A stretch of DNA of 47,423 nucleotides from a virus (lineage: Duplodnaviria > Caudoviricetes): positions 1 through 47,423 of the IMG/VR virus record IMGVR_UViG_3300027749_000176. The stretch is one strand, 5' to 3'. The position numbers and the translations under genes were made by a program. Shown here in pieces: positions 8,822 through 44,720 of this stretch; within the stretch, counting starts at the first letter, position 1, and the number at the start of each line of letters is the position of its first letter. Below the pieces are notes generated by a model. The model saw only the letters and a program-made list of their open reading frames with translations. It was not told the origin of the DNA and searched no databases.

Positions 8822-9447
8822 AAACACTTTTGTTTTGCACCTCTTATGCTGATTCACAGGATGGGTGGAGCGGAAGATATAAATCTTGGTACGATTATTA
8901 TGTATCAGGAAAAGTAAAGCATGATAAAATGCTTATGTTTGATGATGGAAGTCCTATGATGCCATCATTTTGTCCATCAGAAGTTATATATACTTTTCCA
9001 ACTCATTTAGGAAAACGAACAATTGTTGATTACGATGGATGGTATAGGAGCTTTGGAAGTGCAATACAATACGCACAGAATAACGGATTTGATAAAATTG
9101 TTCACTGCGAGGCTGATGCGTATTTATTATCAACTAGGATAATTGATTTTGTAAACTCGCTAACTTCTGGATGGCATTGCTTTTGGTGTCCAAAACACAA
9201 TATGCATGAATCCGCATTGCAAGTAATATGTTCAGACCAAATCCAATCATGCATAAACTTTACTAGCGAGCCTTACGACAAATATAGAAATCAACCAATA
9301 GATTGTTTATTTCCATATACTGATGTACATAAATTTTTTATAGGGGATCGGTACGGAGAATATGGTGGAGATTACATACCAGTAGGTTCAGATTATTCGT
9401 GCCAGACAAGTAGCAACATGATAAACAAATTCCAAAATGAACATTGA
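8818..9447 (+). CDS. Putative glycosyltransferase-like protein
   Basis: MLMFDDGS and FDKIVHCEADAY (ExD) GT-A-like motifs; ATGA overlap with the upstream gene. Confidence 0.55.
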   Translation: MKTLLFCTSYADSQDGWSGRYKSWYDYYVSGKVKHDKMLMFDDGSPMMPSFCPSEVIYTFPTHLGKRTIVDYDGWYRSFGSAIQYAQNNGFDKIVHCEADAYLLSTRIIDFVNSLTSGWHCFWCPKHNMHESALQVICSDQIQSCINFTSEPYDKYRNQPIDCLFPYTDVHKFFIGDRYGEYGGDYIPVGSDYSCQTSSNMINKFQNEH

Positions 9448-9985
9448 AGAAATGCTATCTATAACTGGGAAGAGAGAAAAATCTTTCCGCTACATGGTTG
9501 ATTTCTTAAACGGAATAGAAAATCCAATAATTGTAGAAACAGGATGTGCTAGGGTTGAAAACAATTTTGAGGGAGATGGAATGTCCACGCTAATTTTTGA
9601 TGCATTTGTTGGATCAAATGGAGGCAATTTTTACTCGGTGGACATCAGCGAGGACTCTGTTGCATTTGCAAAATCTAAAATTACCAGTGAAAAAACTCGA
9701 ATTGCCTGTGAAGATAGCGTCGGATTCCTTCACAGATTTAATCAACAAATTAATCTTCTTTATTTAGACAGCTACGATTTAGATCCAACAAACCCGCATC
9801 CGTCATCTCTTCATCATATTTACGAATTGATTGCTGTATCAAAGTGCTTAAAAAAGGGAACAATGGTTGTTGTTGATGACAACCTCAACGATGAAATTGG
9901 CAAAGGGAAATACATTGCTGACTACTTTGTTAAGATTGGAGTTCCAATGATATATTCAGGGTATCAACAAATTTGGAAAATATAG
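9437..9985 (+). CDS. Class I SAM-dependent methyltransferase (Methyltransf_24-like)
   Basis: IIVETG, FYSVDI, DSVGFL, LLYLDS, VVVDD motifs. Confidence 0.8.
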   Translation: MNIEEMLSITGKREKSFRYMVDFLNGIENPIIVETGCARVENNFEGDGMSTLIFDAFVGSNGGNFYSVDISEDSVAFAKSKITSEKTRIACEDSVGFLHRFNQQINLLYLDSYDLDPTNPHPSSLHHIYELIAVSKCLKKGTMVVVDDNLNDEIGKGKYIADYFVKIGVPMIYSGYQQIWKI

Positions 9986-27631: not shown

Positions 27632-28018
27632 ATGAGACACCAAATAAATTATAAATATGTTGCACCAAATACACGCGAATTTGAACAGATGCAGACATTT
27701 GCATCTAGTTTTGACCACAGCATTATACCTGATGCTAACACCAATCTTCATGCTTTCTACAGGGGAGAAACTTGTTTTGGGTATGCAGACTCCGTTTTTG
27801 TACCTGTGGTGTACCCAGCATTTCACCCTGCTTTAACGCGACCTCAAGATGTTATTCAGGTAATGAACGACTGGCGCGCATCTACTCAGTGGGCTGGAAA
27901 ACGAGGTTATATTGGAGTTCCATCTAATAATAACAACGGAAAAGGAAACTTCCCTGAAGAAACAATGAATAAGTTAGGTCTTGAAAGATTAAACAGAGAG
28001 ATATACTCTCCTTTCTAA
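27632..28018 (+). CDS. Hypothetical protein, possibly degenerate GNAT-like (T7 gp13-like position)
   Basis: 128 aa; AFYRGETCFGY and MNKLGLE faintly recall GNAT elements; first gene before the ejection block. Confidence 0.45.
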   Translation: MRHQINYKYVAPNTREFEQMQTFASSFDHSIIPDANTNLHAFYRGETCFGYADSVFVPVVYPAFHPALTRPQDVIQVMNDWRASTQWAGKRGYIGVPSNNNNGKGNFPEETMNKLGLERLNREIYSPF

Positions 28019-28020
28019 TT

Positions 28021-28839
28021 ATGGGCGGACAATCCTCAAGTTACTCACCTCCAATGCCATCGACTTATGCGACGATGGCACAGCTTGGAAATCAAGGAGC
28101 CGCAACTGCTGGTGCGCTACAGGACTATAATATGCTTCTTACAACAGGAGCAAAAATCCCTTTACAGCCATTCACACCTGACATTTTTGGAGGTGGGGGA
28201 GCGGCTACTCAGGCAGGAATGATATCTGCTGTCGATGCCTTTAAGAATAAACAGCTTGAACAGCAACAAAATGCACCAGCCGCCGCCGCGAGAGAAAACC
28301 TCATGCAGGCCGCTCAAGATTATACCTCTCCTGATTATTGGAATAAACAGATGGAGCAGTATGCCAAAACAACTGGCCTTCAAAACCAACTTGCGTCTGG
28401 ACTAGGGGACAGCACCATCGGAAAATCCGCTCTATATGATAAAGCGACTGCACAAGGACAAGCATTTAAGAATGCAAATCTTGGAGCCGCTCAAAATATC
28501 ATTGGAGCCGCCCCTACAGGCGGTTATATTGACCCTGCTTCAGCAATTTCTGCACAACAGGCCGCTCAAGCGCGGAATGCCCAATCCAGAGGTAAATTTG
28601 TTGGTAGCGTTCTTCAAGGGGCGCAGGCAAACCAACAATCTACCACAGATGCAATTAATCAATTGATGGGATCTACCTCTCAAGGAATTAATTCATGGCA
28701 ACAAAATTGGCAAAACAATGATCAAATGAATATGAATAAATCCGCACAAAATGCCGCAGGAGCAAATGCATCAACTGGTGGAATGGTTCAGGGTGGAGCA
28801 ACAATTGCCGCCGCCGCCGCCGTAGTTGCCGCTCTATAA
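28021..28839 (+). CDS. Ejection/pilot-like protein (MGG start, hydrophobic Ala-rich C-terminus)
   Basis: Gln/Ala/Gly/Asn-rich, ends VQGGATIAAAAAVVAAL; TAATG overlap with ycaO. Confidence 0.65.
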   Translation: MGGQSSSYSPPMPSTYATMAQLGNQGAATAGALQDYNMLLTTGAKIPLQPFTPDIFGGGGAATQAGMISAVDAFKNKQLEQQQNAPAAAARENLMQAAQDYTSPDYWNKQMEQYAKTTGLQNQLASGLGDSTIGKSALYDKATAQGQAFKNANLGAAQNIIGAAPTGGYIDPASAISAQQAAQARNAQSRGKFVGSVLQGAQANQQSTTDAINQLMGSTSQGINSWQQNWQNNDQMNMNKSAQNAAGANASTGGMVQGGATIAAAAAVVAAL

Positions 28840-29987
28840 TGAAGTTTAAGTTGGAGGGAGCGCAACGCGCTTGCTCTCCTGAAGATACAATAAGTAGGAT
28901 GAAGCCATTTTTTGAAATGGCTGGTATCACTAGGGTTGGTGACATTACTGGATTAGACAGGATTGGAATACCAGTTGCCCAATGCATAAGACCTGATGCA
29001 GTATCACTGGTAGTAGATTCAGGGAAGGGTTATACCAAAATGCAGGCAAGATGCAGTGCTATTATGGAGGGATTTGAAAGACATATAGCCGAAACTGCAA
29101 ACATAGAATCCATAGATACATCAGAGTCTAATTTGTTAAATTCCGAAACCAGATTTCCAATGTTTAATGGTGCGCCATACATAAAAGATGTGTCTATTAA
29201 ATGGACTACTGCAAAGACCATTTATTCACAAAAAGAAACCTTCGTCCCATTGAATTGTGTAAAAATGATACCAAGGAATTCTTTGCAAAGTATGTTGTCG
29301 GCAAATTTTTCATCTAATAGCAATGGACTTTCTAGTGGAAACACACTTGAGGAGGCAATCTGCGGTGGGCTTTATGAAGTGATAGAAAGGGATCAAGTAA
29401 CTAGGGTCTTCTGCAATCCTGAATTAGGATCAGTAGTCGATATTGATTTAATAAAGGATGAACATCTAAGCACATTGATAGAAAAAATAAAATCAAAGGA
29501 TGTAAATGTAATATTGTTTGATTGCACTGGTGACATTGGACTTCCAACATATATGTGTTACTTATGGGACAATGAGAGAGGTAACGCGCTGTGTAGGGGG
29601 TATGCCGCTCATCTTAACCCTGTAGTAGCCCAAAGCAGGGCAATATGTGAGGCAATACAAGGAAGGGTGGTTTGGATTGCAGGTAGCCGCGATGATATTA
29701 CGCACGAAAAATTTGTAGCATCTAAGAATGATGACACTATTGAAATGGTTGATTCATTGAAAAATTGGAAACCCAAAAAACATATAGAAAGATATGATAT
29801 GAGCGGAAATCTATTTTCAGATGACATTGCAAAGATACTTTCATTACTGGAAAAAGCAGGCATTCCTGAACCATTGATATGCGAATTCCAGCACCAGTAT
29901 CCTTGTAGCGCGGTAAGGATTATGATCCCAACACTTGAAGGGTATTACAATAACTTCATCCAGCGCGGAGCGCGTTCTGTGGCATGA
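28839..29987 (+). CDS. ycaO: YcaO-family ATP-dependent enzyme, TfuA-associated (thioamide-forming) type
   Basis: GITRVGDITGLDRIGIPV, SGKG..SAIMEGFER, SNGLSSGNTLEEAI..GLYEVIERD, AHLNP..RAICEAIQGR..IAGSRDDI, C-terminal RIMIPTLE. Confidence 0.95.
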   Translation: MKFKLEGAQRACSPEDTISRMKPFFEMAGITRVGDITGLDRIGIPVAQCIRPDAVSLVVDSGKGYTKMQARCSAIMEGFERHIAETANIESIDTSESNLLNSETRFPMFNGAPYIKDVSIKWTTAKTIYSQKETFVPLNCVKMIPRNSLQSMLSANFSSNSNGLSSGNTLEEAICGGLYEVIERDQVTRVFCNPELGSVVDIDLIKDEHLSTLIEKIKSKDVNVILFDCTGDIGLPTYMCYLWDNERGNALCRGYAAHLNPVVAQSRAICEAIQGRVVWIAGSRDDITHEKFVASKNDDTIEMVDSLKNWKPKKHIERYDMSGNLFSDDIAKILSLLEKAGIPEPLICEFQHQYPCSAVRIMIPTLEGYYNNFIQRGARSVA

Positions 29988-30976
29988 AAATATTTATTGG
30001 GCCAACAGGAATCGGAATAGAAAAAGAGTTGTCTGAATTTGATGTGATGCCGCCAGCCCAGCAGGGTGACATTGCCTCTGTAGCTTTGGAAGGGGCAACA
30101 ACTATAATTCTAATTGATGGATACTTTTCTCAACATCTGTCGCCTTGGCATAAAGAAGTTATATTTGCGATTGAAAAAGGTTGTAGGGTAATAGGTGCTG
30201 GGTCATTGGGGGCATTGCGAGCAGTAGAATGTGAGAGGTACGGAATGGAATTGGCTGGTGATATTGCACAATGGTACAAGGATGGAATTTGCATCGATGA
30301 CTCTGATGTCGCGTTAGCTCATGCGTGCAAAGAAGATGGATACATGAATCTTTCTGTTCCTCTTGTAAATATTCTTTCTACCTGCATTTCATTAAACATT
30401 GAATATAATCAAATAATAGAAAAATGCAGGTCGATCTTTTATATGGAAAGGAGTTGGAAGCGACTTGAAATTGAACTTGGAGATGATTATTTCAAAATAA
30501 AGAAAAATTACATTAACCAGAAGCAACTTGATACATTAGAGGCCATAAAATTAGCTAAAACGCCCAAGATAGTAGATCGTGAATCACCAAAAAATCTAAT
30601 GGGTAGGCATTTTATGGCAATGCTACTAAACGATGTGCCAAAAAACGGAATCAGGCCATATGAGACAGCAAAGTTAAGAAAAGAAGCCGCCGACTTCTTT
30701 TTACTTACAGAATTTGCTCTTGCATTAGGAGTTACTGCTACTAAAAACGAAATAATTGCGGCGTCTAAAGAAATGTGGATTAAGTCAGGAGTAACTTCAC
30801 AAGATGAATCAATTAAATGGTTATCTGCTAATAATGTCACTGAAGAGCAGTGGAATATGTTTGCACTCAGGACAGCAATCAGGAACGCCGCCGCAAATTG
30901 GCTTGACTCTGCAAGCGGAGGTTGCGACCTTATACCTTTAACAAACCAATATCAAAATCTAACTTTTAAGAATTAA
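29984..30976 (+). CDS. tfuA: TfuA-like protein
   Basis: IFIGPT, PPAQQGDI, ILIDGYF..SPWHKEV, GAGSLGALRAVEC..GM, DDSDVAL.H, LSVPLVNI, FY.ERSW, NQKQLD; ATGA overlap with ycaO. Confidence 0.93.
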   Translation: MKIFIGPTGIGIEKELSEFDVMPPAQQGDIASVALEGATTIILIDGYFSQHLSPWHKEVIFAIEKGCRVIGAGSLGALRAVECERYGMELAGDIAQWYKDGICIDDSDVALAHACKEDGYMNLSVPLVNILSTCISLNIEYNQIIEKCRSIFYMERSWKRLEIELGDDYFKIKKNYINQKQLDTLEAIKLAKTPKIVDRESPKNLMGRHFMAMLLNDVPKNGIRPYETAKLRKEAADFFLLTEFALALGVTATKNEIIAASKEMWIKSGVTSQDESIKWLSANNVTEEQWNMFALRTAIRNAAANWLDSASGGCDLIPLTNQYQNLTFKN

Positions 30977-30977
30977 T

Positions 30978-31361
30978 ATGGGTGGTTCTCCAACAGACTA
31001 CAATTCAAATAATTCTACACCTTTGCGTTTTAGCGGAGGTGGCCCTTCCCCAGTGCAATCTCAACCAACCCAACCTTGGCAGGTTCAAAGCACGCACCCA
31101 GAGGCAATTGCTCAAGGGGCCGCAACTGGTATAAGTAACGGAATTTCTCTTGGCATGGGTTTAGGTGGATCAAAAGGCGGCTCGCAACAGCCAAACTCTA
31201 CTGGAGGGTATGACACTCAACAGCAAGCCCAAGCCGCCGCTCCGAATGCGGCTGGATACACTAATGTTCAAGGAGTAGGATGGGTTCCACAAGCACAGGG
31301 CGTAAATTATCAGCCAGATCAAATGCAAAGAATGTATGGCTATAATTATGGCAATATGTAA
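30978..31361 (+). CDS. Small MGG-start Gly/Gln-rich virion protein
   Basis: MGGSPTDY start; IAQGAATGISNGISLGMGLGG segment. Confidence 0.7.
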   Translation: MGGSPTDYNSNNSTPLRFSGGGPSPVQSQPTQPWQVQSTHPEAIAQGAATGISNGISLGMGLGGSKGGSQQPNSTGGYDTQQQAQAAAPNAAGYTNVQGVGWVPQAQGVNYQPDQMQRMYGYNYGNM

Positions 31362-31386
31362 TCACAACCAATAACTGAATAATATT

Positions 31387-31896
31387 ATGGGAGGAGGCTC
31401 AACAGGATCAAACCAAGCGCAATCTGACTCAGCCAATCAAATGGCTCAAGAGCAGATGTGGATAGGATATTTGAAACAACAGCAACAACAACAATCTGCG
31501 ATGCAAGCCGCCGCCATGAAAGCACAACAGCAGGCGATTAAAGACGCGCAGATCAACGCTTCCCAAAGCTCACAATTGGAAGGCGAGCAACGCGCACAGC
31601 AACAGCTTGGTCTTCAAAATTCATTTCAGCAGGCACAGGATGCAACTGCTATGAATAATCTAAAAACCGCTACGGCTAACGCTCCGACTGGCGGAGCATT
31701 CAATTTTAACCTAGCCCAACAAAACCAGCTTTCCAACCTTGGAGCCGCTGGAGGACTTCCTCCATCCGCCGCAAATCAAGCTGGCAGCATGATGCCAACG
31801 ATCAACCCTGCTGCCACCACTGCTGCAAATCTTGGCACTGGAGCTAGGAACCAAATTCAGAGTCCAGCCGTAGGCAAAACCTTGGGGGGATACTAA
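31387..31896 (+). CDS. MGG-start Gln/Ala-rich ejection-like protein
   Basis: MGGGSTGSNQ start, poly-Gln, ends GKTLGGY. Confidence 0.7.
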   Translation: MGGGSTGSNQAQSDSANQMAQEQMWIGYLKQQQQQQSAMQAAAMKAQQQAIKDAQINASQSSQLEGEQRAQQQLGLQNSFQQAQDATAMNNLKTATANAPTGGAFNFNLAQQNQLSNLGAAGGLPPSAANQAGSMMPTINPAATTAANLGTGARNQIQSPAVGKTLGGY

Positions 31897-31902
31897 AATC
31901 TC

Positions 31903-33708
31903 ATGGCTTACTCACTTGACCAAGGTGGAGTAGCGTTTACGCCTGCTGTTCCAAATGATGACTCCCAAGCCGTTGCTTTAGCAGGACTTAAACCCATCTC
32001 TTTTCAACCTGTAGCATCACCAATTCAATTCCAGCCGCTGTCAGGATGGTCAACTCCTTCGACCCACCCTGAATACATCGCGCAGGGAATTAGTGGTGCT
32101 CTTGGTTCAATTGGTCAGGGAATTACTGCCGCATATCAAAGTAAGAGGCAGGAACAAAAAGATAAAACGGCTTCTGCTTTTGCACAAAGCAAGGAACAAG
32201 AAGCGATTCGACACAATAAAGTGTTAGAATCTATCATGCAAGAGCGCATCAAGAATGTTGTCCCAAAGTCGCTTTCAGCCCCATTGCAGACACTAAATAA
32301 TCCAGCAGGAGACGATACTACATCTTTGGAGCAACAGCAATTTACACCTGAAAATATCACACCAGAAACTCCATCAGAAAATCCATTCAAGGAAATCAAT
32401 CTTCCTGATCAGTTTGACCAACAAACAACTCCTGACAATACCCTAAAAATTGAGGGGTCACCTCTTGCAAATATTACTGCACCAGCCCCAGCAGGTGAAT
32501 TGAGGGGATCTCAGGCACTTGCCGCGCTGTCTTCAATTCCTTGGGGCGGTATTTCAGGCACATACAAGTCGGCAGGTGGAGTTCCATCACAACCATTCCA
32601 GCCATCTGCTCCTGATTGGTTGCGTAATCCAAAAGCCGCTATGGCAGGTGTACAAACGCTTGGTGGCGACACTGACAAGTCATTCGCGGCAGGACAGCGT
32701 GCAGTCGGATCAATTCTAGATGCCGCCCAACTCGGATATTCTCCAGAGACAGGAACTGCGGTTCGCCCATCAATGGCTAAAAACCCAACTATGGAAGCCG
32801 CAATTGGTGAGGATTCAATTTACTCCCAAGAAGATGCTCGCAAACTGCGAGACTACGCAGCTTCACATGGCAAGATTCCTCCACAGCTTATTGAGCAAAA
32901 GAATGGCAGTTACTTGGTAAAGTGGCCTACTCCTGAACAACTAGCAATGGAGGGAACTCGTAAAGAGCGTCTTGACATCGCCGCCAGCAATGCAATGGAG
33001 CGCAGGGCGAACGATTACATCACCAAAAACATAGGGCCAAAAAAGATTGAGGCTGGTCGCGCAGCCCTTGCTGGATTCCTTGCCGCATATAGGACTGGAC
33101 TGACATCTGGCAACCAAAATATCACCGATCTTGATCTTGCTGACAATTACATCGCCTTCGCTCGCGGAGCATCCTCACCAACTGGTGCGGGAGGTCAAGT
33201 AACCGAAGGCCAGTACGAAGAACTAAAGAAAAACGGAAGCCTGTACAACAAGTTGACCAAGGCCGTTACATCAAAAACCAGTGGTGCATTTTTGTCTCCA
33301 GATGATCGCAAGACCATGCTTAATACCTTGGTAGAGGCATACAATAGCCAAGCAAAACGCGAGAACGGAAAGCTGGACGCATTCCGCAAGGCAATGATCA
33401 AAGATTATCCCAACACTCCAGAAGAGAAGATACCAAAAGATTATCCGCTATTAAAGACTCCTGAAGAGACACACAAAGAGCAAATGGAGGCCGCTGACGA
33501 GGTCAGGAAGATTGCTAAAAAACTTACTCCGCAAGAACGTGCAACCCACCCAGAATATAAGGAAGCACTTGCAAAACTTAGCCAATTATCATCTAGTGGA
33601 GAAATCCCAGCCAACGCCGATGAAGTGAACAACACGACAGCAGGCGTTCAGGCAGGGTTTTTTGGAGGAACCGCTCCGATTAACTACATTCAACAACCCA
33701 CCCAATAA
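31903..33708 (+). CDS. Ejection (internal virion) protein-like
   Basis: 601 aa; IAQGISGALGSIGQGITAAY amphipathic Gly-rich helix, then disordered and helical regions. Confidence 0.6.
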   Translation: MAYSLDQGGVAFTPAVPNDDSQAVALAGLKPISFQPVASPIQFQPLSGWSTPSTHPEYIAQGISGALGSIGQGITAAYQSKRQEQKDKTASAFAQSKEQEAIRHNKVLESIMQERIKNVVPKSLSAPLQTLNNPAGDDTTSLEQQQFTPENITPETPSENPFKEINLPDQFDQQTTPDNTLKIEGSPLANITAPAPAGELRGSQALAALSSIPWGGISGTYKSAGGVPSQPFQPSAPDWLRNPKAAMAGVQTLGGDTDKSFAAGQRAVGSILDAAQLGYSPETGTAVRPSMAKNPTMEAAIGEDSIYSQEDARKLRDYAASHGKIPPQLIEQKNGSYLVKWPTPEQLAMEGTRKERLDIAASNAMERRANDYITKNIGPKKIEAGRAALAGFLAAYRTGLTSGNQNITDLDLADNYIAFARGASSPTGAGGQVTEGQYEELKKNGSLYNKLTKAVTSKTSGAFLSPDDRKTMLNTLVEAYNSQAKRENGKLDAFRKAMIKDYPNTPEEKIPKDYPLLKTPEETHKEQMEAADEVRKIAKKLTPQERATHPEYKEALAKLSQLSSSGEIPANADEVNNTTAGVQAGFFGGTAPINYIQQPTQ

Positions 33709-33711: not shown

Positions 33712-36700
33712 ATGGGCGAAAATGATGTCGAAAATGACATAAAAAAGGCGATGGCAGGAACAACACCTGCCTCCGTTCCTGTACCGACATCCGCTCCTGA
33801 AGATTCAGTAGAAGCAGACATTCAGAAGGCCATGAAGCCATCTGCTGGTCAGGTTGAGAAGGCCACTAATCCATATGCAGATATTGCAAAGAAAAAGCCA
33901 GAAGAGATTGACGAGGTTGACCGCGATATCCTTTCAACTGCCAAGACTCCTGAACAGATAACGCAGATTCCCAAACATCTACCCCTCACCAACGAGCAAC
34001 TTCGAACGAAGTTTGAGCATGAAAGGAGCCTCCCTTGGAACGAGGGGATGAAGACGCCTGAAGACTGGTACAATATTGGGAAGGACATCGTTGGTTCTGG
34101 AGTAAGTTTTGGTAAGGGTGCAAAGAAATTTGCAGAAAACTTATTATTCTCTGGTGCTGATGAAGATCCATCTGGCTGGGGGACACCCAGCGTACAACCT
34201 GTAAAAGATTTTGCTTCCAGCTTCTTTAAGATGCCAGAAGACATTCTGTATGCTGGAGGAAAAATCCATGAGGGGGGAATGGATTGGACTGACCGACTCA
34301 GTGAGAAATTTGGACTTCACGACAAAGAAAAGAGCTTTGAAAATTACAAGGCTCGCCATGCGATTGATCAAATCCATGCTCAAACACAAGTAGAAAATCC
34401 ATCTATATACAGCCGCATAATGAAAGGCGATGTGGCAAACAGCGCACTATCAGCCGTTATTCTGAATTCTTTGCCAGACTCACAGACCATAATGGAGCAA
34501 GATGGTGTAACACTTGAGCAGGCAAACCTCAAGCGAAAGGCGATGGCGGATCAGATTGCCCAGCAGACCACCTCCGAGATATCCTCTCAAGAAAAGCCAT
34601 CTGACGAAGACATTTCTACATTTGGAACATTCGCAATGCCATCTGGACTCGGACTTGGTGAGATGGGTGCGTTGACGATTGGTCTTGAAACGGCTGGCGC
34701 ATTGACTCCTAAAATTGCACAGGGACTGAAATACCTTGGCAAGACTGATGACGAGATCAAGGCAATGAATGATGCCGCGCAAGCGTTACAGAAACAGAAA
34801 TTTGCGGAGAAAATTGAGAAGGCTCAACAACCATCTATGATAGGCCGTAGTGCTGGCGCGATGGCTGAAGGAGTTGAGAAGCTAAAGACAATGGCGCAAA
34901 ATTCTCCTGATCTTCTCAAGAAGATTGCTCCATATGCAATCGGAGGCGTTGTTGGATATGAGACACAGCCTCAACATCCATACTTAGGCGCACTTGGAGG
35001 TGCTTTTATTGGAGAAAAAACAATCCCAAAGTTTTCAAAACTAGGTTCTAAGGCACTTCAAATACCTGCTCTTGTTAGGGACATCGATGAGGCCCGCGCT
35101 ATATCCGCAGGAGGAACTAGGGGGGCTTTTGAAACATTGGGATCTTTCCCTGACGTCAGTGAACAAACTGCAAAAATTTTAAGATTCGGAGGGAAGCGTT
35201 TGGATAACATTATCAACAATTCAGTTGATTATGCAAAATCTGGAATTCATCCAACATTGATAGCACTGGCTACTGGCGCACTTGATTCAGCATCGCCAGA
35301 GGAGCGCAGCAACCTTGTTTCACAGGGGCTTTTGTATGGACTTGGAGGCAGGGCATTACATCAAGCGTGGGGTAAGATTGCAGGAGTAGATCCTGTTGTT
35401 GAACAACGTGAGCGCAGGCAACAGGCAGTTGATGACTTTAAGACATATAAGAGCCTTGATCCTGAGACCCAGCAGACCATGAATGGATTGACAAGCTGGG
35501 ATAATGAAATCCTTCGCCAGCAAAATGCGCTAACGGAAGCCCAGAATGCTTATACGGAATCGGTTCGTACAGGAAGTCCTGATGCAGAAAAACTTGGCAA
35601 AGCAGTCTCTTCACAAGAAAAGATTGTATCTGCCGTAAAGCGAGCAAATGTACAAACTCGTAATGAATACGGACGGCAGTTTCTGACGCAGCTTACCAAG
35701 CTAAACGAACTTACTAACGGCACGCTACGCGCAGGACAGAACAATGTTGGCGTCCACATCCTGACACCTGACCAGATATTTACTAAGTTCAGGCAAGACC
35801 CTGCCAATAATGGCATGAGTGATGCCGAGGTAATGGAGACCGCTAACCAGCAGGGATTTTACAGCACTCCAGAGGGAGCAGTAGAGTATCAGGCAGGGAT
35901 GCCAATGGGTGGCGAAAAGAAGACCCTGATCTTTGATCGTACGAAGCCATCAATCGTCATCAATTCCAACCACTTGAAGGCTCGCCAGCAGATTTTTGGT
36001 GAAACCCCTATTGAGGCACTTACGCACGAATTCGGTCACCACATCCGCAACATCCCTGAATTCAGAGAGGCAAATAAAGACGCCGAAGACCTGCTATTCA
36101 GCCAAGAGATCAAGGATCTGAACGGAAATGTAACGGCTACCACATCTGGAAAGTACAGCACCAAGGATTTGGTGGATATGTACACCAACAACTACATGAA
36201 GGGGAAAAGCCCAGATCAGATCGAGCAGCTTTCTAAGCTGGCTGGCCTGTGGGATGAAACTCGCGGCGCGCTCAACGAGCAGGCTGTTGGTGATTATATG
36301 AAGGACGAGATCGTCGCTCAACTCAACGCTGGCACGCTTTCAAACCATCTTGGCAAGGATCTGGACTCAGCAACGCTCCATTTAGTGGATCTGGCTACCA
36401 TTAAGACCAAGAAAAACCTGCTCGATAGGGCGGTTCAGAAGTTCTTTGGACTGGGAGGAAAAGGCAGTCCTGTAGACCCTCTCACAGGCGCGGAGTTCTC
36501 CCCAGAGGTACTAGCCGCCAATAGGCAGGCCATACGCGCTCTACAAGCCTTGCAGGGCGAGGTTTCTCCTGCGGTAAAGGCTCCAGACGCACCGAAGATC
36601 AGCAGGGCGTTGATGATCAAGAACCGCGCCATCATGGAGAAGTACGGAAAGTACAGCGGACTCTTCAAGACAAAGACACAAGGGCAGATTTACGACGCCG

Positions 36701-39700
36701 CTGGTAACCCTGTAGGCGCACCTGTTGACATTGCCAACCCAGCAGCCGCTGAAGGCGCATGGGCGACCGACAGACAGCTTTCTGGTTATGGACAGAAGCC
36801 TGATGAGGTTCAGGGTATGGCAATACCCACAGGCGGCAAGCTAGTCGTCAGCAAGGCATTTGTCACAGAGGCAGACGGAGTAACGCCTGCGATGTATACG
36901 CCAGCGGAGGCAAAGAAGCTGCAAAAGGCTCGCAAGGATACGATCTTGCAGGCACTGGATACGCCTGATTATGGAACTCCAAACCGATTCCAGCCTGTAG
37001 CCGACAATTCCGAGACACTGCGTGGAACATTCACGCCACTACAGATTCAGGCCATCAAAGACCTGCCAGAAGGAATCATTCCAAAGTCGATCAAGGATCA
37101 TATCCTGAAGATCAACGATGCAATCGTCAGGGGAGATGGATCTCGCTTGCTGGTTGATTACGCCGCCGTCATGAACGACGCAGGCAAGTACACGGCTTAC
37201 TCTCCGAAGGTTTACGATGTGGTTCCCATTGGAATGCACCTATCCAAGGATGGCAACTTCCTTGTTACCACGATCTCCGTTGGCAGGATGTTTGAGAAGC
37301 TCAACGCATGGAGTCAGCGGATGCCAGCAAGACTATCACCTTGGGGTGGCGACAAGAACGCATTCTTCAAGGAGTTCACCGAGAAGTACCTCCAGAACTG
37401 GCAGAACGGACTTGCTGGAGAAACTGGTCTGGCTGGAACGCCTGCTGAAGCACTGGCAAAGAAGAACATCTTCAATGATTTCCTGAACCTCACCACAAAT
37501 GATTTCCGAGGATTGAATGAGGATCGCACTAGGACACCTCGTAAGCGCGGAGACGCGCGTGGAAAGGACATGGATCGAACGATCCTGTCAATGCGCTTGG
37601 ATCACATGGCAGAGTTGATGGACAACGAACACGCTCCGAAAGTTCCAGTAGATTACGGAAAGGCTATCAGGAATTTTATGCCTGCGGAGACAGAGCAAGA
37701 AAAGTATCCTACAACCGAAAAAGGATTCTATTCTGGGTTGCAAAAGGCCGTGGATGAAAAGATGCCATCAAAGGCTTCTCCGCAACAGGTGTTGCAAATC
37801 GTAAACAACCCACAGAACGCCAAGGCTGAAGAGGTAAAGTGGAGTAATATTGCAGGTTTCCTAGAAGGCAAGAAAAGCGTTACCAAACAAGAGGTTCTTG
37901 ATTACCTCAAGAACGAGGGTGCTGTTAAATTTGAGGAAGTAACGCAAGGAGATTGGGGTAAAGCTAGAGAAAAGATTTATCAGGCACATGATCGTGGAGA
38001 AATTTCTACGGAAGAAAGAAATCGTCAAATTGATGAGGTTGAAAAACAAATTCCTCGTCCAACGAAATTCTCCCAATACACCCTCCCCAACGGCGAGAAC
38101 TACAAGGAGGTTGTGCTGACGATGCCAGAGGCAGATAAGAATATAGATTCAATAGACATTGAAATAGCGAAAAAAAAAGAATATATTCAATACCTTGAAA
38201 ATGGTGGAGATCCTGTGGATGTCCTGTCCGATATATTTAACACACAGGAAAAATCACAACAAGAAGAGCTAAAAGAAGCTAGAGCAGATTTATTGCGTTT
38301 GGAATCCCAAAGAAAACAGCAACCTAATCTTGGATACACCTCATCCCACTTCTCCGACATCCCCAACTATGTAGCCCACATGAGGCTTAACGAGCGTCCT
38401 GACAGCGAGGGACGCAATGGGCTGTTCATTGAAGAACTTCAGTCTGACAGGCATCAGCAGGGTAGGGAGAAGGGGTATAAAGATGAAAATCAGTCATCAA
38501 AACTCCCAGAAGGATTTACATTTGAAAAAATACAAACCTCTGTTTTTGATTCTGGTGAAGGATGGGTTGCAAAAGACCAAAATGGCAGAACCGTTGGAAC
38601 CGTATCTCAAACTAGGGAGGGAGCAGAGGCACAAGCATTAAGGAACATCAATCAAGATAAACAAGGCATCCCAGACGCCCCCTTCCGCAAAGATTGGTCA
38701 GTCCAGATGTTTAAGCGAGCCTTGCGTGACGCTATCGCAAGCGGAAAGGAATGGATCGGCTGGACTAGCGGAGAGACGCAGGCCGAAAGATACGATCTAA
38801 GCAAACAGGTGAGGTTTATCGCATACAATAAAGTAGGAGATAAAATAGGGATCATAGCAAAAGACCATAATTTTCAGACAATAATTGCAAAATCATACAA
38901 CCCTTCAGAACTTCCAGATGTTATTGGAAAAGAGGTTGCACAAAAGATTATTAATGGGGAAGGCACAGAGAAGAAAACAGAGCTTTCAAATGGTGATGTA
39001 ATAAACATGAAGCACCTTTCTGGAGTTGACCTAAAAATCGGTGGAGAAGGCATGAAAGGATTCTACGACCAGATCCTTCCAAAAGAGATTGGCAAATATG
39101 TTAAAAAGTGGGGAGCGAAAGTTGAGGAGGGCGATGTAAAAACTGATCCCAAGGAATATGACACAACCCCAATCTGGAAAGTTGCCATCACCCCTGAAAT
39201 GCGTGAGAGCATCAAAAGGGGCGGTCAGATCCAGTTCTTGCCATCACGCGACGGCGAGGAGGAACGCATCACAGCAGCCACCTACACCAACCCTCGCACT
39301 GGAAAGGTTACCGAAGGTGCAACGCATCTTATTGCCAACCCCAACGCCCCACAGGAGGCGACTGACAGGGAAAGCCCAGCGTATGGATTCAAAACGAGTT
39401 CTGGGGGCATTGTAGACCGCGCAACGGCGTATCAGATCGCGAAGGACTCTGGTCAGTTGAAGGCTCCCACAACGGAGGAGGAGAAGTTCCATGCTGATCG
39501 CGGAATCCTGCACAGCGGAATGTATGAGCCGAAGGGTGACATCTCCTTCCCTCCCTCCGACGACGCGCACCGCGCCGCCGTCGAGTCAGGCGATACCGAG
39601 GAGGCGCAGAGGTTGGTGGATGAGGTGGCGAAGAAGGCTGGGTACACGATTGGGCCTCTGTGGCATGGAACTAGCGGAGATTTTTATGAGTTCCGACCTT

Positions 39701-41706
39701 CTGGAGATGAAAAAGCCATTTTCTTGTCCACCGACAAAAATGAAGCAAAAGCATTTGCTACAGGAAAAGGCGGAAAAGTAATGGGGCCATTGTATGTAAA
39801 AGCAACTGGGCCTGATAAATTGTACCACGCGACTGAAGAGCGTGAAGCGATTCAAAAAGCACGAAAAAAGGGATATACTGGAATAAAAGTCACCGATCAG
39901 TTGCCGTATTCAACATATACAATGAAACCACAAAGACAGATTGTTAATTACGCTGTTTTTGATCCCAACCAAATCAAATCCTCCGACCCTGCGACCTACG
40001 ACAAAGACGGCAACCTAATCCCTCTCTCGCAACGCTTTAATCCAACAAGCAGCGACATCAGGTTCATGCCGTCCAGCGAACTTCCAAAGACCGAGGACGG
40101 CGCAGTAGACTGGGAGTCGTTCAAGGTTAAGGCGCAGGAGATTTCCGCACCGCTAGCGAACCTCGCTCCGCTGGGTGGCATTAGCTTCATGCCTGCGAAA
40201 AATCCAGCCGCAACGCAGACAGGATATGATGATACATATCTAAAGAAAGCATTAAAGGCTGGTAAAGATGGTAAAGTTGCTCTTACTCGACCAGTTCGTC
40301 CTGATGAGGCTTTGCCACTTCTTTCCCAACGCATTCCAATCACAGGTGACAATGAATGGTCATCATTCGCTTTTGACAAGGCTGGCAATGTCACTCTTTA
40401 CAACCATGATGGAAATTCTGTGACATTCAAATACGATCCAGCTTTGTTAGCAAAACCTGTATTCAAGGATGCCGCCATAGAACACGCTGGAAAGGCTGTG
40501 CAATTAGCTATGGCTGATAGACACACCGCAACTGGTGGAGATATGGGAGGAATTCTGCACCCTTGGTTGTTGTCAAATATTAATTCCACAATCACTGGAA
40601 GCGATGGAAAAGAATATCGCGTAGTATGGGCAAACAATGAATGGAAGCCTGTTCTTTCAATGAAGAACAAAGCCAAGAAATGGGGTGCGTATGACCTCAT
40701 GACTTATCTTATGGGAAAAGACTCCCATGCGTCTAATTCTCGCTCTGTACGAACTATTTCAAACGAGATTGAGAATGCTCCGATAACTAGGCAACAAAAG
40801 GATCTTTTCCTTGTTCTAGCGAACATTGGAATAACAAAGCAAAAAGCGGCTGATCAGGTAAAAAACATTGCAAAAGCAAACAAGAAAATTGCCAAGCATG
40901 AAAAGATCCTGAAAACAGAAACAGATGAAAAGAAAGTTAACGCTTCCACAAATGCAATTGCCGCAGCTAACCGCCAATTAGAAACAGCACAATCCAAGTT
41001 ATCAAATCACATATTAAATGATGATCAAATGGCATTGGGTGCTTTGCTAACAAAGTACAAAACAGCATACACTGCATACAAAAATGGAAGCAGAAGTGAA
41101 GAAAGTTTCTTAAAAAATAAACAAGAATTAGAAAATTACAAAAAATCACAAGAATTTAAGAATCTTGTAAAAGACGTTCATGGCAAGCAACTAGTAAACC
41201 TTGATAAAACTTTCAAAGGAAGAAAGTCAGCCATAAAAGAAATGATGAATGTCAATTTAGATGGGTTTGATGTGAATCAAATCCTGCATGAGACATCTGA
41301 TTTTGAAAATGGAAGAATCAATCATTTTGTGGGTAGCGTAGAGCTTTCAAGAAATCCTGACCTTATGGCGGTATATCTTGGAAACGATCCAAAACAAGCA
41401 AAACGCATGACCGCGCAGGAAGCGGCGGCGGCGGCAAAATTAAAGGCTGATCCAAACTTTGTTCCTCACGAAGCATACACATGGGCAATGCTTGGGCCAG
41501 TCGATGGGAATCACTTCCTAAATAGTGAACCAGCAACCCATCTTGAATACTTCCCTGAATTCAGAGAGCAATATGCCGCACTAAAAAAAGATGCTAAAAA
41601 GAGAAAAGCAATTTTGAATGGTAGTGAAACCACAATGATGGGAGCTATGCGTGATACGCTTGATATGCCGCTTGTAATGAAGAGCCTTTCTGATATAAAA
41701 AAATAA
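33712..41706 (+). CDS. Giant polyvalent internal virion protein (zincin HExxH, EELQSD module, ART-like domain)
   Basis: 2664 aa; THEFGH 36022-36039; FYSGL..LFIEELQSD..PDAPF..GMKGFYD module; PLWHGT..IFLS..YAVFDPNQIKS ADP-ribosyltransferase-like module. Confidence 0.75.
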   Translation: MGENDVENDIKKAMAGTTPASVPVPTSAPEDSVEADIQKAMKPSAGQVEKATNPYADIAKKKPEEIDEVDRDILSTAKTPEQITQIPKHLPLTNEQLRTKFEHERSLPWNEGMKTPEDWYNIGKDIVGSGVSFGKGAKKFAENLLFSGADEDPSGWGTPSVQPVKDFASSFFKMPEDILYAGGKIHEGGMDWTDRLSEKFGLHDKEKSFENYKARHAIDQIHAQTQVENPSIYSRIMKGDVANSALSAVILNSLPDSQTIMEQDGVTLEQANLKRKAMADQIAQQTTSEISSQEKPSDEDISTFGTFAMPSGLGLGEMGALTIGLETAGALTPKIAQGLKYLGKTDDEIKAMNDAAQALQKQKFAEKIEKAQQPSMIGRSAGAMAEGVEKLKTMAQNSPDLLKKIAPYAIGGVVGYETQPQHPYLGALGGAFIGEKTIPKFSKLGSKALQIPALVRDIDEARAISAGGTRGAFETLGSFPDVSEQTAKILRFGGKRLDNIINNSVDYAKSGIHPTLIALATGALDSASPEERSNLVSQGLLYGLGGRALHQAWGKIAGVDPVVEQRERRQQAVDDFKTYKSLDPETQQTMNGLTSWDNEILRQQNALTEAQNAYTESVRTGSPDAEKLGKAVSSQEKIVSAVKRANVQTRNEYGRQFLTQLTKLNELTNGTLRAGQNNVGVHILTPDQIFTKFRQDPANNGMSDAEVMETANQQGFYSTPEGAVEYQAGMPMGGEKKTLIFDRTKPSIVINSNHLKARQQIFGETPIEALTHEFGHHIRNIPEFREANKDAEDLLFSQEIKDLNGNVTATTSGKYSTKDLVDMYTNNYMKGKSPDQIEQLSKLAGLWDETRGALNEQAVGDYMKDEIVAQLNAGTLSNHLGKDLDSATLHLVDLATIKTKKNLLDRAVQKFFGLGGKGSPVDPLTGAEFSPEVLAANRQAIRALQALQGEVSPAVKAPDAPKISRALMIKNRAIMEKYGKYSGLFKTKTQGQIYDAAGNPVGAPVDIANPAAAEGAWATDRQLSGYGQKPDEVQGMAIPTGGKLVVSKAFVTEADGVTPAMYTPAEAKKLQKARKDTILQALDTPDYGTPNRFQPVADNSETLRGTFTPLQIQAIKDLPEGIIPKSIKDHILKINDAIVRGDGSRLLVDYAAVMNDAGKYTAYSPKVYDVVPIGMHLSKDGNFLVTTISVGRMFEKLNAWSQRMPARLSPWGGDKNAFFKEFTEKYLQNWQNGLAGETGLAGTPAEALAKKNIFNDFLNLTTNDFRGLNEDRTRTPRKRGDARGKDMDRTILSMRLDHMAELMDNEHAPKVPVDYGKAIRNFMPAETEQEKYPTTEKGFYSGLQKAVDEKMPSKASPQQVLQIVNNPQNAKAEEVKWSNIAGFLEGKKSVTKQEVLDYLKNEGAVKFEEVTQGDWGKAREKIYQAHDRGEISTEERNRQIDEVEKQIPRPTKFSQYTLPNGENYKEVVLTMPEADKNIDSIDIEIAKKKEYIQYLENGGDPVDVLSDIFNTQEKSQQEELKEARADLLRLESQRKQQPNLGYTSSHFSDIPNYVAHMRLNERPDSEGRNGLFIEELQSDRHQQGREKGYKDENQSSKLPEGFTFEKIQTSVFDSGEGWVAKDQNGRTVGTVSQTREGAEAQALRNINQDKQGIPDAPFRKDWSVQMFKRALRDAIASGKEWIGWTSGETQAERYDLSKQVRFIAYNKVGDKIGIIAKDHNFQTIIAKSYNPSELPDVIGKEVAQKIINGEGTEKKTELSNGDVINMKHLSGVDLKIGGEGMKGFYDQILPKEIGKYVKKWGAKVEEGDVKTDPKEYDTTPIWKVAITPEMRESIKRGGQIQFLPSRDGEEERITAATYTNPRTGKVTEGATHLIANPNAPQEATDRESPAYGFKTSSGGIVDRATAYQIAKDSGQLKAPTTEEEKFHADRGILHSGMYEPKGDISFPPSDDAHRAAVESGDTEEAQRLVDEVAKKAGYTIGPLWHGTSGDFYEFRPSGDEKAIFLSTDKNEAKAFATGKGGKVMGPLYVKATGPDKLYHATEEREAIQKARKKGYTGIKVTDQLPYSTYTMKPQRQIVNYAVFDPNQIKSSDPATYDKDGNLIPLSQRFNPTSSDIRFMPSSELPKTEDGAVDWESFKVKAQEISAPLANLAPLGGISFMPAKNPAATQTGYDDTYLKKALKAGKDGKVALTRPVRPDEALPLLSQRIPITGDNEWSSFAFDKAGNVTLYNHDGNSVTFKYDPALLAKPVFKDAAIEHAGKAVQLAMADRHTATGGDMGGILHPWLLSNINSTITGSDGKEYRVVWANNEWKPVLSMKNKAKKWGAYDLMTYLMGKDSHASNSRSVRTISNEIENAPITRQQKDLFLVLANIGITKQKAADQVKNIAKANKKIAKHEKILKTETDEKKVNASTNAIAAANRQLETAQSKLSNHILNDDQMALGALLTKYKTAYTAYKNGSRSEESFLKNKQELENYKKSQEFKNLVKDVHGKQLVNLDKTFKGRKSAIKEMMNVNLDGFDVNQILHETSDFENGRINHFVGSVELSRNPDLMAVYLGNDPKQAKRMTAQEAAAAAKLKADPNFVPHEAYTWAMLGPVDGNHFLNSEPATHLEYFPEFREQYAALKKDAKKRKAILNGSETTMMGAMRDTLDMPLVMKSLSDIKK

Positions 41707-42060: not shown

Positions 42061-43368
42061 ATGGCAACTGACATTTCCCAGATTAAAGACCCCAGCGATG
42101 TGGTCGCCTTAGTAGTAGACAACGGACTTTTCGTAGAGATCGCCATCAAACTGGCGAAGACATATAAGCGAGTGCTGTACTATGTCCCTTGGGAGAGCGC
42201 GTTTGCCAAGATGAACCTTGGCATGATCGGCACTGGGCTTGAGGGCATTGAGGTTGTGGACAGCATCTATGGGCCTCACTTCGACGAGGTTGACCTGTTC
42301 GTGTTCCCTGACATTTACTTCGGATACGAGCAGGAGATGCTTGAGAAGATGGGCAAAGCCGTATGGGGGTCTCGCACAGGCGAGTGTCTGGAACTCAAGC
42401 GTGAGGGCATGAAGCAGATCCTGACCGCTCTTGATATGCCAGTGGGCAAGTACACGCACATCAAGGGAATTGCCAACCTGCGCGCCTTCTTGAAAGAAAA
42501 CGAGGATGTCTACGTCAAGATCGACAAGTTCAGAGGCACATTTGAAACCTTTCATGCTCCAAACTACAAGGAAGTTGAGCCGAAACTGGACGAGGTTGAG
42601 TACAACATCGGCGCGTTCAAGCACACGATTGAATTCACCTGCGAGGAGGCGTTAAATGATTGCGTTGAGGTAGGAACAGATTGTTGGGTGATTACTGATG
42701 ACAATGGACAGGCCCACTATCCACAACACACAATCAGCGGGATTGAAATCAAGGATGTTGGATTTGCGTCGATTTTCAAGAAGTACGCTGACATCCCAGA
42801 GGTTGTTACACGATTTAACGAGCGCATGAAACCAGTTTTCGCAGCCTACAACTGGCGCGGATTCATGTCCACCGAAGTGCGTATTGGAAAAGACATGAAA
42901 CCATATATGCTTGACCTTTGTGGTCGCGCTCCATCGCCTCCAAACGAGTTGTACCAAGAACAATATTCGAACTTAGCTGATTGTATTTGGGCTGGTGCAA
43001 ATGGAATTGTGATTGAACCAGAAGCAACGGCTAAATACGGAGCCGAGATCATGCTCCACTCCTCATGGGCTGACAAGGGATGGCAACCTGTAAGTTTTCC
43101 TGATGAGTTGCGTGATCGCGTCAAGCTCCGTAACGCCACGATGATCGACGGCGTATACTACGCCATTCCGCAAGCCTGTGGCCTACCAGAGGTAGGCGCG
43201 GTGATCGGACTTGGTGAGACACTCAAAGAGGCTCTAGATGACGCTGTAGCCAACGCAGAGCAGGTTACAGGATACTATCTGGAAGCCAAGATGTCTGCCA
43301 TCGACTCCATCAAAGAAGAGTGCGAAAAACTTGAAGAACTTGGAGTTAATATGTTTGATACCAAGTAA
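42061..43368 (+). CDS. ATP-grasp ligase, PurD/GARS-like architecture
   Basis: 435 aa; VDLFVFPD, VWGS..LELKREGMKQIL..MP, VYVKID, EE..EVG, WRGFMSTE..PYMLDLCGR, C-terminal VIGLGETLKEA. Confidence 0.7.
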   Translation: MATDISQIKDPSDVVALVVDNGLFVEIAIKLAKTYKRVLYYVPWESAFAKMNLGMIGTGLEGIEVVDSIYGPHFDEVDLFVFPDIYFGYEQEMLEKMGKAVWGSRTGECLELKREGMKQILTALDMPVGKYTHIKGIANLRAFLKENEDVYVKIDKFRGTFETFHAPNYKEVEPKLDEVEYNIGAFKHTIEFTCEEALNDCVEVGTDCWVITDDNGQAHYPQHTISGIEIKDVGFASIFKKYADIPEVVTRFNERMKPVFAAYNWRGFMSTEVRIGKDMKPYMLDLCGRAPSPPNELYQEQYSNLADCIWAGANGIVIEPEATAKYGAEIMLHSSWADKGWQPVSFPDELRDRVKLRNATMIDGVYYAIPQACGLPEVGAVIGLGETLKEALDDAVANAEQVTGYYLEAKMSAIDSIKEECEKLEELGVNMFDTK

Positions 43369-43979: not shown

Positions 43980-44028
43980 CCCTCCTGATCCGCCTCGCCG
44001 CGAAGAGGACATGCCTCCGTACAAATGA
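43957..44028 (+). CDS. Possible 23-aa Pro-rich peptide
   Basis: MKSPKPLNPPDPPRREEDMPPYK; its stop overlaps the next start (ATGA 44025-44028). Confidence 0.35.
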   Translation: MKSPKPLNPPDPPRREEDMPPYK

Positions 44029-44720
44029 GAATTGACATCAAAGCGGTTGATCCATCCGTAGTAAGATATTCTACAGCAGGCGACTGGTGGTGGAATGGCG
44101 ATGGCTCCCTGCAAATCTCAGTACCTGAATATGGAAGCCGCAACAGCAGTTTCCTAGTCGCCCTGCATGAGATGGTCGAGGCATGGCTTTGCCGCGCCGC
44201 TCACATCACCGAGGAGGAGGTTCTCAAGTGGGATCTTGACCACCCCGACAGCGATGAGCCTGCGGAGGAGAAAGGCTCGCCGTACATTCATCAACACAAT
44301 ACCGCGCTTAAGGTTGAGAAGATTGTAGCGAAGGCACTGGGCGTCGATTTTGGAAAGCATGACCACTGGGTGGTGAACGCCGCCGCTGAAGTCGATAGGC
44401 ATCTTGACAGCGGAGTACCTGTGGCTCGCATCACCAAGGAGGGGTCTCGCTACTGGACTGAGTTACACCTATTCGCACTTCGCGTGAGCGGCGAGAACCT
44501 GTGCCATGATTATTGGTTCACCGAGTGGATGAAGTCTTTACCATTTGAGGGATGCCCATGCGAGCAGCACCTGAAAGATTTTGTGCGGAAGAATCCTCCT
44601 GATTGGAACGACTTTTTCAAATGGTCTGTGGATCTCCATAACGCCGTAAACGCACGAATTGGAAGGTTGACGATTAATGTTGAGATGGCGAAAAAGATGT
44701 GGGTGGATCGTCAATTCTGA
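44025..44720 (+). CDS. Fusion: HExxE metal-binding domain plus Erv1/ALR sulfhydryl-oxidase-like domain
   Basis: VALHEMVE..H..HQH in the N-terminal part; YWTELH..LPFEGCPCEQH..WSVDLHNAVNARIGR..W in the C-terminal part. Confidence 0.7.
   Translation: MRIDIKAVDPSVVRYSTAGDWWWNGDGSLQISVPEYGSRNSSFLVALHEMVEAWLCRAAHITEEEVLKWDLDHPDSDEPAEEKGSPYIHQHNTALKVEKIVAKALGVDFGKHDHWVVNAAAEVDRHLDSGVPVARITKEGSRYWTELHLFALRVSGENLCHDYWFTEWMKSLPFEGCPCEQHLKDFVRKNPPDWNDFFKWSVDLHNAVNARIGRLTINVEMAKKMWVDRQF

Follow-up and report, generated by a model that had tools for sequence, protein, structure and literature searches.

What does a ycaO–tfuA gene pair do among the virion ejection-type genes of a phage, and which protein do the two enzymes modify? 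The pair lies in the virus record IMGVR_UViG_3300027749_000176, a 47.4-kb contig, 75% complete and present in freshwater metagenomes (the whole stretch of 47,423 nucleotides that was analysed is referred to as the window). The answer we favour, with a probability of about 0.6, is that YcaO–TfuA thioamidates the Ala/Val-rich C-terminal tail of the protein encoded directly upstream (gene 28021; genes are designated by their first position), using sulfur of the host. The enzymes and their chemistry are already known; what would be new is the substrate class and the setting. The features needed for the argument, all on the plus strand, are the following.

28021–28839, +: first ejection-type protein, likely substrate; 272 amino acids (aa), starts with Met-Gly-Gly (MGG), position of T7 gp14/P22 gp7
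28780–28836, +: aliphatic C-terminal helix, residues 254–272 of the same protein, ending ATIAAAAAVVAAL; likely thioamidation site, as judged from hydropathy and covariation
28839–29987, +: YcaO, ATP-dependent backbone-amide activating enzyme; 382 aa, PF02624
29984–30976, +: long form of TfuA; 330 aa, TfuA domain (residues 1–197) and helical C-terminal domain
30668–30913, +: possible substrate-binding domain, TfuA residues 229–310, with weak SurA/trigger-factor likeness
30978–31361, +: small ejection-type protein of 127 aa, also with an MGG start; lies within the swappable block and is the second-ranking candidate for a substrate
31387–31896, +: MGG-start ejection-type protein, 169 aa; context, not associated with the enzymes
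28753–31368, +: swappable block made up of ycaO, tfuA and gene 30978, preceded by the ejection gene's final ~29 codons
27632–28018, +: conserved anchor gene, 128 aa, in the position of the JC1 N-acetyltransferase

Identity and integrity of the gene pair

A first reading made from the letters alone (the sequence-only reading) had described ycaO and tfuA as intact genes with conserved motifs, and the open reading frames (ORFs), family scores and invariant residues agree with it. In the hidden Markov model (HMM) search that it had proposed, YcaO matched the full PF02624 model with 205.5 bits (positions 1–325, cut-off 25.7) and TfuA matched PF07812 with 99.2 bits (cut-off 30). The overlaps TAATG (28837–28841) and ATGA (29984–29987) and the 1-nt gap at 30977, to which it had drawn attention, are present in the sequence. 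Among NCBIfam models both proteins scored best on those for methanogen McrA thioamidation, below the equivalog cut-offs (YcaO 221.6 bits with TIGR03266, cut-off 365; TfuA 115.5 bits with NF033432, cut-off 235.2). Among solved structures, YcaO is closest to M. jannaschii MJ1094 (E 7e-27) and TfuA to M. acetivorans TfuA, 6XP8 (E 1e-32). An AlphaFold2 model of TfuA (predicted local distance difference test score, pLDDT, 89) matched 6XP8 through residues 1–197 with Z 23.3 and a root-mean-square deviation (rmsd) of 2.3 over 194 residues. Residues 229–310 gave Z 6.5 with PEB4 (3RGC; rmsd 4.2, 81 residues aligned), 6.3 with trigger factor 7ZGI and 6.0 with 9IBN. Since all these scores are below 8, the likeness to SurA and trigger factor is only suggestive; judging from the model, the C-terminal domain may possibly bind the substrate.

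The YcaO motif SGKG and the residues E77/E80/R81, E180/E183/R184/D185 and E271/Q274/R276, aligned to MJ1094, were invariant in 67 of 67 sequences. We take these Ser, Lys, Glu and Arg motifs to be the ATP and Mg ligands. The ratio of nonsynonymous to synonymous substitution rates (dN/dS) was 0.03–0.10 for ycaO in all nine pairs compared; for tfuA, five divergent pairs gave 0.08–0.13, and three pairs that are nearly identical, with 1–4 changes per class, gave 0.27.

The pair could have been captured recently and be a passenger without function, or it could be an artefact of assembly: its GC content is 38–39%, as against ~48% in the flanks, and many relatives lack the genes. However, the GC content at third codon positions equals that of the neighbours (0.32–0.33 and 0.31–0.34, respectively), which rules out recent import as the meaning of the low GC, while dN/dS is far below 1 and the catalytic-type residues are invariant. 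An artefact is contradicted by single contigs from three of four public runs, which cover both junctions (27949–31758, 28462–32132 and 28799–32132), and by two further IMG/VR records, L001 and L002, whose gene order is identical to that of the window. Neither the decay nor the chimerism that the sequence-only reading had named as objections was found, and this explanation, largely refuted, is hardly credible. The two genes are intact, under purifying selection and non-chimeric.

An aliphatic tail precedes the pair

Scans of viral sequences yielded 79 distinct ycaO contigs. In 74 of these an ejection-type gene stands directly upstream of the pair, so that the random contexts considered by the sequence-only reading were not seen; blastp placed each upstream gene with gene 28021 or with the upstream protein of L006, often through a terminal domain described below. 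The five exceptions are L113, with an HNH-like gene inserted, L051, L052 and L095, in which the pair lies in the replication module, and L115, where it lies beside capsid genes. TfuA accompanied ycaO in all 63 viral loci with room to see it, in some with a short gene between.

The C-terminal helix of the gene 28021 product (residues 254–272) is the most hydrophobic 19-residue segment of the protein (Kyte-Doolittle 1.67). The upstream proteins of the 74 loci all possess an Ala-rich aliphatic run of this kind at their end, free in three, including the ATIAAAAAVVAAL type of the window, and capped by a domain in 71. At least five of the last six tail residues are A, V, I, L or M in 69 of the 74, and the tails of the remaining five are rich in Ala and contain one F/G or S. 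The tail has no conserved Cys, Ser or Thr available for further tailoring. The pair follows two ejection-protein families without detectable homology to each other.

The cap domain comprises 63–82 residues and begins with CWxAR. Scanning 8 of 64 parts of the collection for this pattern gave 78 matches in 74 loci with enough flank, in which the preceding tail was aliphatic in 5/5 proteins followed by ycaO versus 2/73 others. As only five of the 78 scored matches have ycaO, the domain is widespread without it and does not belong to the system. That it begins at a Cys directly after the tail hints at possible self-cleavage. The label 'CFI-box-CTERM-like', considered for the domain, was supported neither by NCBIfam (three full-length carriers) nor by Pfam or a paper. 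In the wider form CW[VI]AR, with 63–95 residues, the domain is C-terminal in ejection-type and other phage proteins (L215–L335; ~960 stretches estimated), and L229 carries three tandem copies.

Slot content and tail type vary together

Relatives hold an unrelated PP-loop enzyme or nothing in the slot that ycaO–tfuA occupies in the window, a point absent from the sequence-only reading. To sample the phage's own family irrespective of enzyme content, the best 80 of 271 relatives by anchor gene 27632 were taken; 68 of the 80 could be scored, the others ending too early. The slot contained YcaO–TfuA in 5 loci, the PP-loop enzyme in 30 and nothing in 33, and the tail was aliphatic in 5/5, 29/30 and 1/33 of them, respectively. 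When 14 loci found through the PP-loop enzyme, L119 and the window were added and identical rows removed, 38 of 39 distinct enzyme-bearing loci had the aliphatic tail versus one of 25 empty loci. Mean hydropathy of the last 19 residues was 1.44 with YcaO, 1.79 with the PP-loop enzyme and 0.21 with an empty slot.

The PP-loop enzyme (276–321 aa, often with a CxxCxxCC or other small gene) is unrelated to YcaO and absent from the window. SGGKDS and C230/C233/C244 (CxxC..C) were invariant in 18 of 18 sequences. Of the 32 tails that go with it all are free, none carrying the CW domain, and 29 have Ile as their last residue. No PP-loop homologue was found in four ycaO records (the control was positive), no ycaO in two complete PP-loop genomes, and neither ycaO nor the PP-loop enzyme in five empty-slot genomes that are at least 90% complete. 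YcaO–TfuA and the PP-loop enzyme alternate in one slot and are mutually exclusive in the genomes tested.

A tree of nozzle and anchor sequences was built from 62 rows (L119, L214 and L380, having no nozzle sequence, were omitted and the window added). On this tree enzyme presence and tail type each switch 11 times. In seven independent pairs on supported branches the two characters were concordant 6.4 times and never opposite (sign test, median p 0.016); a quick tree gave nine independent pairs and p 0.008. The nearest relative of the window, L014, whose marker is 97% identical, has no enzyme and a Gly-zipper tail. DNA similarity between the two ends at 28752 and resumes at 31369, indicating that 28753–31368 was swapped.

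Several observations weigh against reading this covariation as a functional bond. Tail and enzyme genes are adjacent and one crossover moves both, so that the covariation is in part linkage. On the careful tree the sign-test p value reaches up to 0.063. The tail threshold was set after inspection of the data (four others gave nearly the same table), three of the seven YcaO rows in the extended set are near-copies, and the 74 ycaO loci represent 25 different tails, one of them shared by 32 loci. L371 has the PP-loop gene and a tail ending GGLIIF. Aliphatic tails without an adjacent enzyme occur in L381, L226 and L260, incomplete records that, searched for ycaO only, gave none; the complete genome G005 (L254), with GGAAAA before the CW domain and no ycaO in the same kind of search, is a weaker case. 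The test with unlinked genes rests on one genome, G001, and the three other records with a relocated pair (L052, L095 and L115) are fragmentary and yielded no ejection gene. Finally, gene 30978 shares the swapped block with the tail and the enzymes.

Three points nevertheless exceed what linkage explains. The same tail goes with two unrelated enzymes and with two unrelated carriers. In loci with two copies of the ejection gene, the tail is confined to the copy next to the enzyme (14/14), which by itself is compatible with linkage. In the complete genome G001 the tail, AGAAAAAAI before the CW domain, is kept, and ycaO–tfuA lie ~17 kb away on the other strand, in the replication module. The first ejection gene is variable in other ways too: it is duplicated whole in the sub-lineage L388–L407, and in that of L017–L043 and L119 it is split into ORFs of ~120 and ~175 aa, and a short motif is duplicated where they part (e.g. 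L018, 1898–2783).

The same data bear on the possibility that the true substrate is another protein, such as the product of gene 30978 or some other virion or host protein, and that the aliphatic tail hitch-hikes in the linked block. Homologues of gene 30978 were detected only in enzyme-bearing loci (11/39 versus 0/25, namely in 5 of 7 YcaO and 6 of 32 PP-loop loci), ycaO–tfuA lie outside the ejection operon in 4 of the 79 contigs (L051, L052, L095 and L115), and E. coli YcaO modifies an unlinked host protein, uL16 (PMC13063428). However, gene 30978 homologues went undetected in 26 of the 32 PP-loop loci and beside ycaO in the second phage group, G001 retains the tail despite its distant enzymes, and both enzymes and both non-homologous ejection families are paired with one tail type. 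We consider a different substrate unlikely. The sequence-only reading had proposed the virion proteins on both sides as substrates. These results point to a single likely substrate, the tail of the upstream protein; they do not point to gene 31387 downstream, its homologues having a similar ..FGG-type end in all three slot states (0/49 aliphatic).

Proposed reaction

In the mechanism that we propose, the pair would convert at least one backbone amide in the C-terminal helix of the gene 28021 product to a thioamide, in the cytoplasm and ahead of packaging into the virion. If YcaO follows the chemistry established for such enzymes, it would use ATP to phosphorylate the amide oxygen as sulfide attacks; O-phosphorylation of a backbone amide by YcaO requires external sulfide (PMC7581889). 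TfuA, a hydrolase acting with thiocarboxylated ThiS homologues (PMC13063428), would supply this sulfide, likely from a thiocarboxylated ThiS-type carrier of the host. A host source is assumed because neither ThiS nor ThiF turned up in these phages: a Pfam scan of the window's 49 ORFs (75% complete record) detected no ThiS, ThiF, transporter or protease family, in keeping with the sequence-only reading, and ThiS and ThiF were also missing from five related records, four of them at least 90% complete.

Thioamides are made by YcaO and TfuA in MCR (methyl-coenzyme M reductase), thioamitides and thiovarsolins (PMC6511847, bioRxiv 2020.12.17.423248, PMC7581889), and a precursor with the two enzymes is enough in a heterologous host (PMC6511847). 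The enzymes place several thioamides in an aliphatic core, where these resist proteolysis; in thiostreptamide, whose core is aliphatic, they are at Val2-Met3 and Ala5-Ile6 (bioRxiv 2020.12.17.423248). Relatives without an enzyme have a Gly-rich tail at the point where the phage protein has the aliphatic helix. This helix is predicted to enter the outer membrane of the host, as gp14-type first ejection proteins do via predicted transmembrane helices (PMC8954989). Thioamidation may make the helix more protease-resistant or easier to insert (the sequence-only reading had named protease resistance, defence evasion or folding); this purpose is the weakest step of the proposal.

The tail might instead be modified at its terminal carboxylate, by amidation, as a thiocarboxylate, or by becoming cross-linked, as an amidine or amide, to the Gly at the N terminus of an MGG-start protein. 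The free, mostly Ile-ending tails of the PP-loop loci suit carboxylate adenylation, and the PP-loop enzyme may act on the carboxylate; its model (pLDDT 65) matches FAD synthase, CysH, CysD and TtuA about equally. YcaOs also form amidines and cleave peptides (PMC13063428), and four ORFs of the window begin with MGG. MGG starts, however, are found in every slot state, and since 71 of the 74 YcaO-linked tails are capped by the 63–82-residue domain, a free terminus appears unneeded unless the domain is cut off. Moreover, TfuA is present in 63/63 phage YcaO loci, and the YcaO–TfuA pairs of the cited papers all make thioamides. Carboxylate chemistry is therefore improbable in our view.

It is also conceivable that the ejection protein doubles as the precursor of a RiPP (a peptide synthesized ribosomally and modified post-translationally), the thioamidated tail being cut off and acting at infection, in thioamitide-like manner, on the membrane or the ATP synthase of the host. 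The tail resembles in composition the cores of thioamitides, which are inhibitors of mitochondrial ATP synthase (bioRxiv 2020.12.17.423248), the closest cellular YcaOs adjoin ABC-transporter genes resembling peptide exporters (labelled by reading the translations), and in the bacterial locus L126 a leader-type precursor ending GASAAVAAA precedes ycaO-ycaO-tfuA. A protease and a transporter are missing among the 49 ORFs, though, the tail lacks conserved Cys, Ser or Thr, and its position, occupied by a Gly-rich tail in homologues without an enzyme, suggests that it is retained in the protein. We regard this explanation as quite improbable. L126 (5294–12572) is itself a bacterial RiPP-like cluster, with a precursor ending TTTTTTTTVFAGASAAVAAA, two YcaOs, a long TfuA and further enzymes.

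Comparison with known systems

Thioamidation of the gene 28021 tail would resemble, and differ from, several described reactions. With the methanogen thioglycine system (McrA Gly465; TIGR03266, NF033432; 6PE3, 6XP8) the phage shares adjacent ycaO and tfuA, the folds, and a full-size protein as likely substrate. Unlike that system, the phage pair scores below both equivalog cut-offs, is phage-encoded, has no McrA gene with it among the window's ORFs and includes a TfuA with a ~130-residue extension; its likely target is a terminal aliphatic helix, that of the methanogens an active-site Gly. In the thioamitide and thiovarsolin pathways (TsaH/TsaI; VarY/VarT), too, YcaO and TfuA are encoded beside the substrate gene; the thiostreptamide core is aliphatic (Ala/Val/Ile), and for thiovarsolin three genes suffice with host sulfur (PMC6511847). 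The phage substrate would, in contrast, be a 272-aa virion-type protein in place of a short leader-core precursor, and neither protease and transporter nor tailoring genes were found among the 49 ORFs of the 75% complete record. E. coli YcaO acts, as the phage enzyme probably would, on an intact protein, ribosomal uL16 (PMC13063428); it has 586 aa and works without TfuA, and the phage YcaO matches its model NF040716 weakly (44 bits, cut-off 700).

The PP-loop state has a counterpart in the late cassette of the Lessieviruses JC1/Bcep22, which encodes acetyltransferase gp63, virion protein gp64 and 'PAPS (3'-phosphoadenosine-5'-phosphosulfate) reductase' gp65 in the gene order of the window (PMC9144972). 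JC1 gp64, the counterpart by position of gene 28021, was found in virions by mass spectrometry (PMC9144972) and ends ..GTVAGAGIMAF; the gene directly after it encodes a PP-loop enzyme with a distant likeness to the slot enzyme (HH probability 89%). The JC1 slot holds this PP-loop enzyme, gp65, whereas that of the window holds YcaO–TfuA, and gp64 is not detectably homologous to gene 28021. In the JC1 paper gp65 is a sulfate-reduction moron gene, unconnected to gp64 (PMC9144972). CtaC of the closthioamide pathway (AANH/PP-loop) is an Fe-S PP-loop enzyme able to thioamidate a peptide backbone (PMC6772006). The slot enzyme itself carries a PP-loop and the invariant CxxC..C, and its fold matches fit TtuA no better than CysH, CysD or FAD synthase; by sequence it is nearer to CysD and PAPS reductase.

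By analogy, the PP-loop enzyme likely does a comparable finishing job in the sister phages. A bolder view is that short-tailed phages use two unrelated ATP-dependent chemistries, YcaO–TfuA and an Fe-S PP-loop enzyme long annotated as 'PAPS reductase', as interchangeable means by which the first ejection protein's membrane-piercing helix receives sulfur in its backbone; this is possible and, for the present, doubtful. If it is correct, the numerous 'PAPS reductase' genes that phages carry in this slot would encode synthetases of protein thioamides or thiocarboxylates without a role in sulfur metabolism, and thioamidated virions would be common in lakes, which can be tested in cultured JC1/Bcep22. 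Such genes, now read as auxiliary sulfur metabolism, would gain a testable function.

Two protein thioamides only, those of MCR and ribosomal uL16, were known by a 2026 count (PMC13063428). Should the tail of gene 28021 be thioamidated, a virion protein would be the third, the first viral one and made by virus-encoded enzymes, and sulfur modification of an ejection-protein tail by a phage would be a new kind of virus-protein modification. The three genes, expressible in E. coli, would form a system in which the effect of thioamides on a membrane-inserting helix can be studied, and might supply a tool enzyme for thioamidating aliphatic peptide tags. The sequence-only reading knew of no such phage system, and our literature search (judged by title and opening of the abstract; subscription journals and bioRxiv supplements lay outside its coverage) found neither a phage YcaO–TfuA system nor a thioamide-modified ejection protein. 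The locus is a real, selected and undescribed phage use of known chemistry, with a likely substrate.

Distribution of the phage YcaOs

Some 62 clusters of YcaO proteins at least 47% identical, all on contigs of at most 63 kb, stand clear of the cellular YcaOs, which are at best 38% identical and spread over phyla. A tree of 73 rows places 22 viral representatives, the window's among them, in one clade (Shimodaira–Hasegawa-like approximate likelihood ratio test, SH-aLRT, 100) and four viral rows in a separate one; by this tree, the window's YcaO belongs to a phage-only clade. Independent captures of ycaO by phages were considered on account of the two clades and dropped: a single origin of all viral YcaOs is not rejected (approximately unbiased test, p 0.495), a point that weighs against the favoured reading. 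Among 50,697 GenBank phage records no match was found to the YcaO, PP-loop enzyme, nozzle or capsid protein, in a search of limited sensitivity (the PP-loop query missed even JC1 gp65). In L115 (5431–7571) a divergent ycaO–tfuA lies between terminase-like and scaffold/capsid-like genes of an unrelated phage and may have another virion substrate.

Gene layout and other genes of the window

The genes around the pair run in the order nozzle, small gene, 128-aa gene, gene 28021, larger internal proteins. The labels portal, capsid and nozzle are based on gene order and size without family matches, and 'ejection protein', for the genes flanking ycaO–tfuA, on gene order and composition only; these flanking genes had no Pfam, PHROG or NCBIfam match. 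Gene 28021, itself without Pfam, PHROG, HMM or PDB match, fits the gp14/gp7 first-ejection class by its position as the first internal-protein gene after the nozzle, by its size (the class has ~200–300 aa; PMC8954989) and by its hydrophobic helix. An ESM Atlas feature match of 0.92 to a cluster with 13% P22_gp7 members is a lead only. Gene 27632 had no Pfam, PDB or Atlas match and no similarity to JC1 gp63, and a GNAT fold, considered for it, was supported neither by the searches nor by that comparison. Promoter and terminator scans gave counts near chance and nothing at the block edges.

Four virion-type ORFs (4538, 28021, 30978 and 31387) begin with Met-Gly-Gly, as do most of their homologues, in any slot state; the homologues of gene 31387 share a conserved ..FGG-x C-terminal motif. 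In the last ejection-type protein (33712–41706, 2664 aa) there is an ART-PolyVal domain (PF18760). The relatives L001 and L002, otherwise near-identical, differ in the C-terminal half of this protein and in gene 31903, which points to a second swappable block. A 435-aa protein (42061–43368), a possible second modifying enzyme, had no Pfam, PHROG or NCBIfam match; by eye it presumably resembles an ATP-grasp ligase. A 231-aa protein (44025–44720) has a C-terminal Erv1/Alr sulfhydryl-oxidase domain (PF04777, 28.7 bits), and the product of a Cys-rich 192-aa gene before the portal gene (1526–2104) could be its partner. Between the scaffold-like and capsid genes (6491–9985) there is a run of low-GC glycosyltransferase-like genes and a Methyltransf_24 gene, possibly a capsid-glycosylation cluster.

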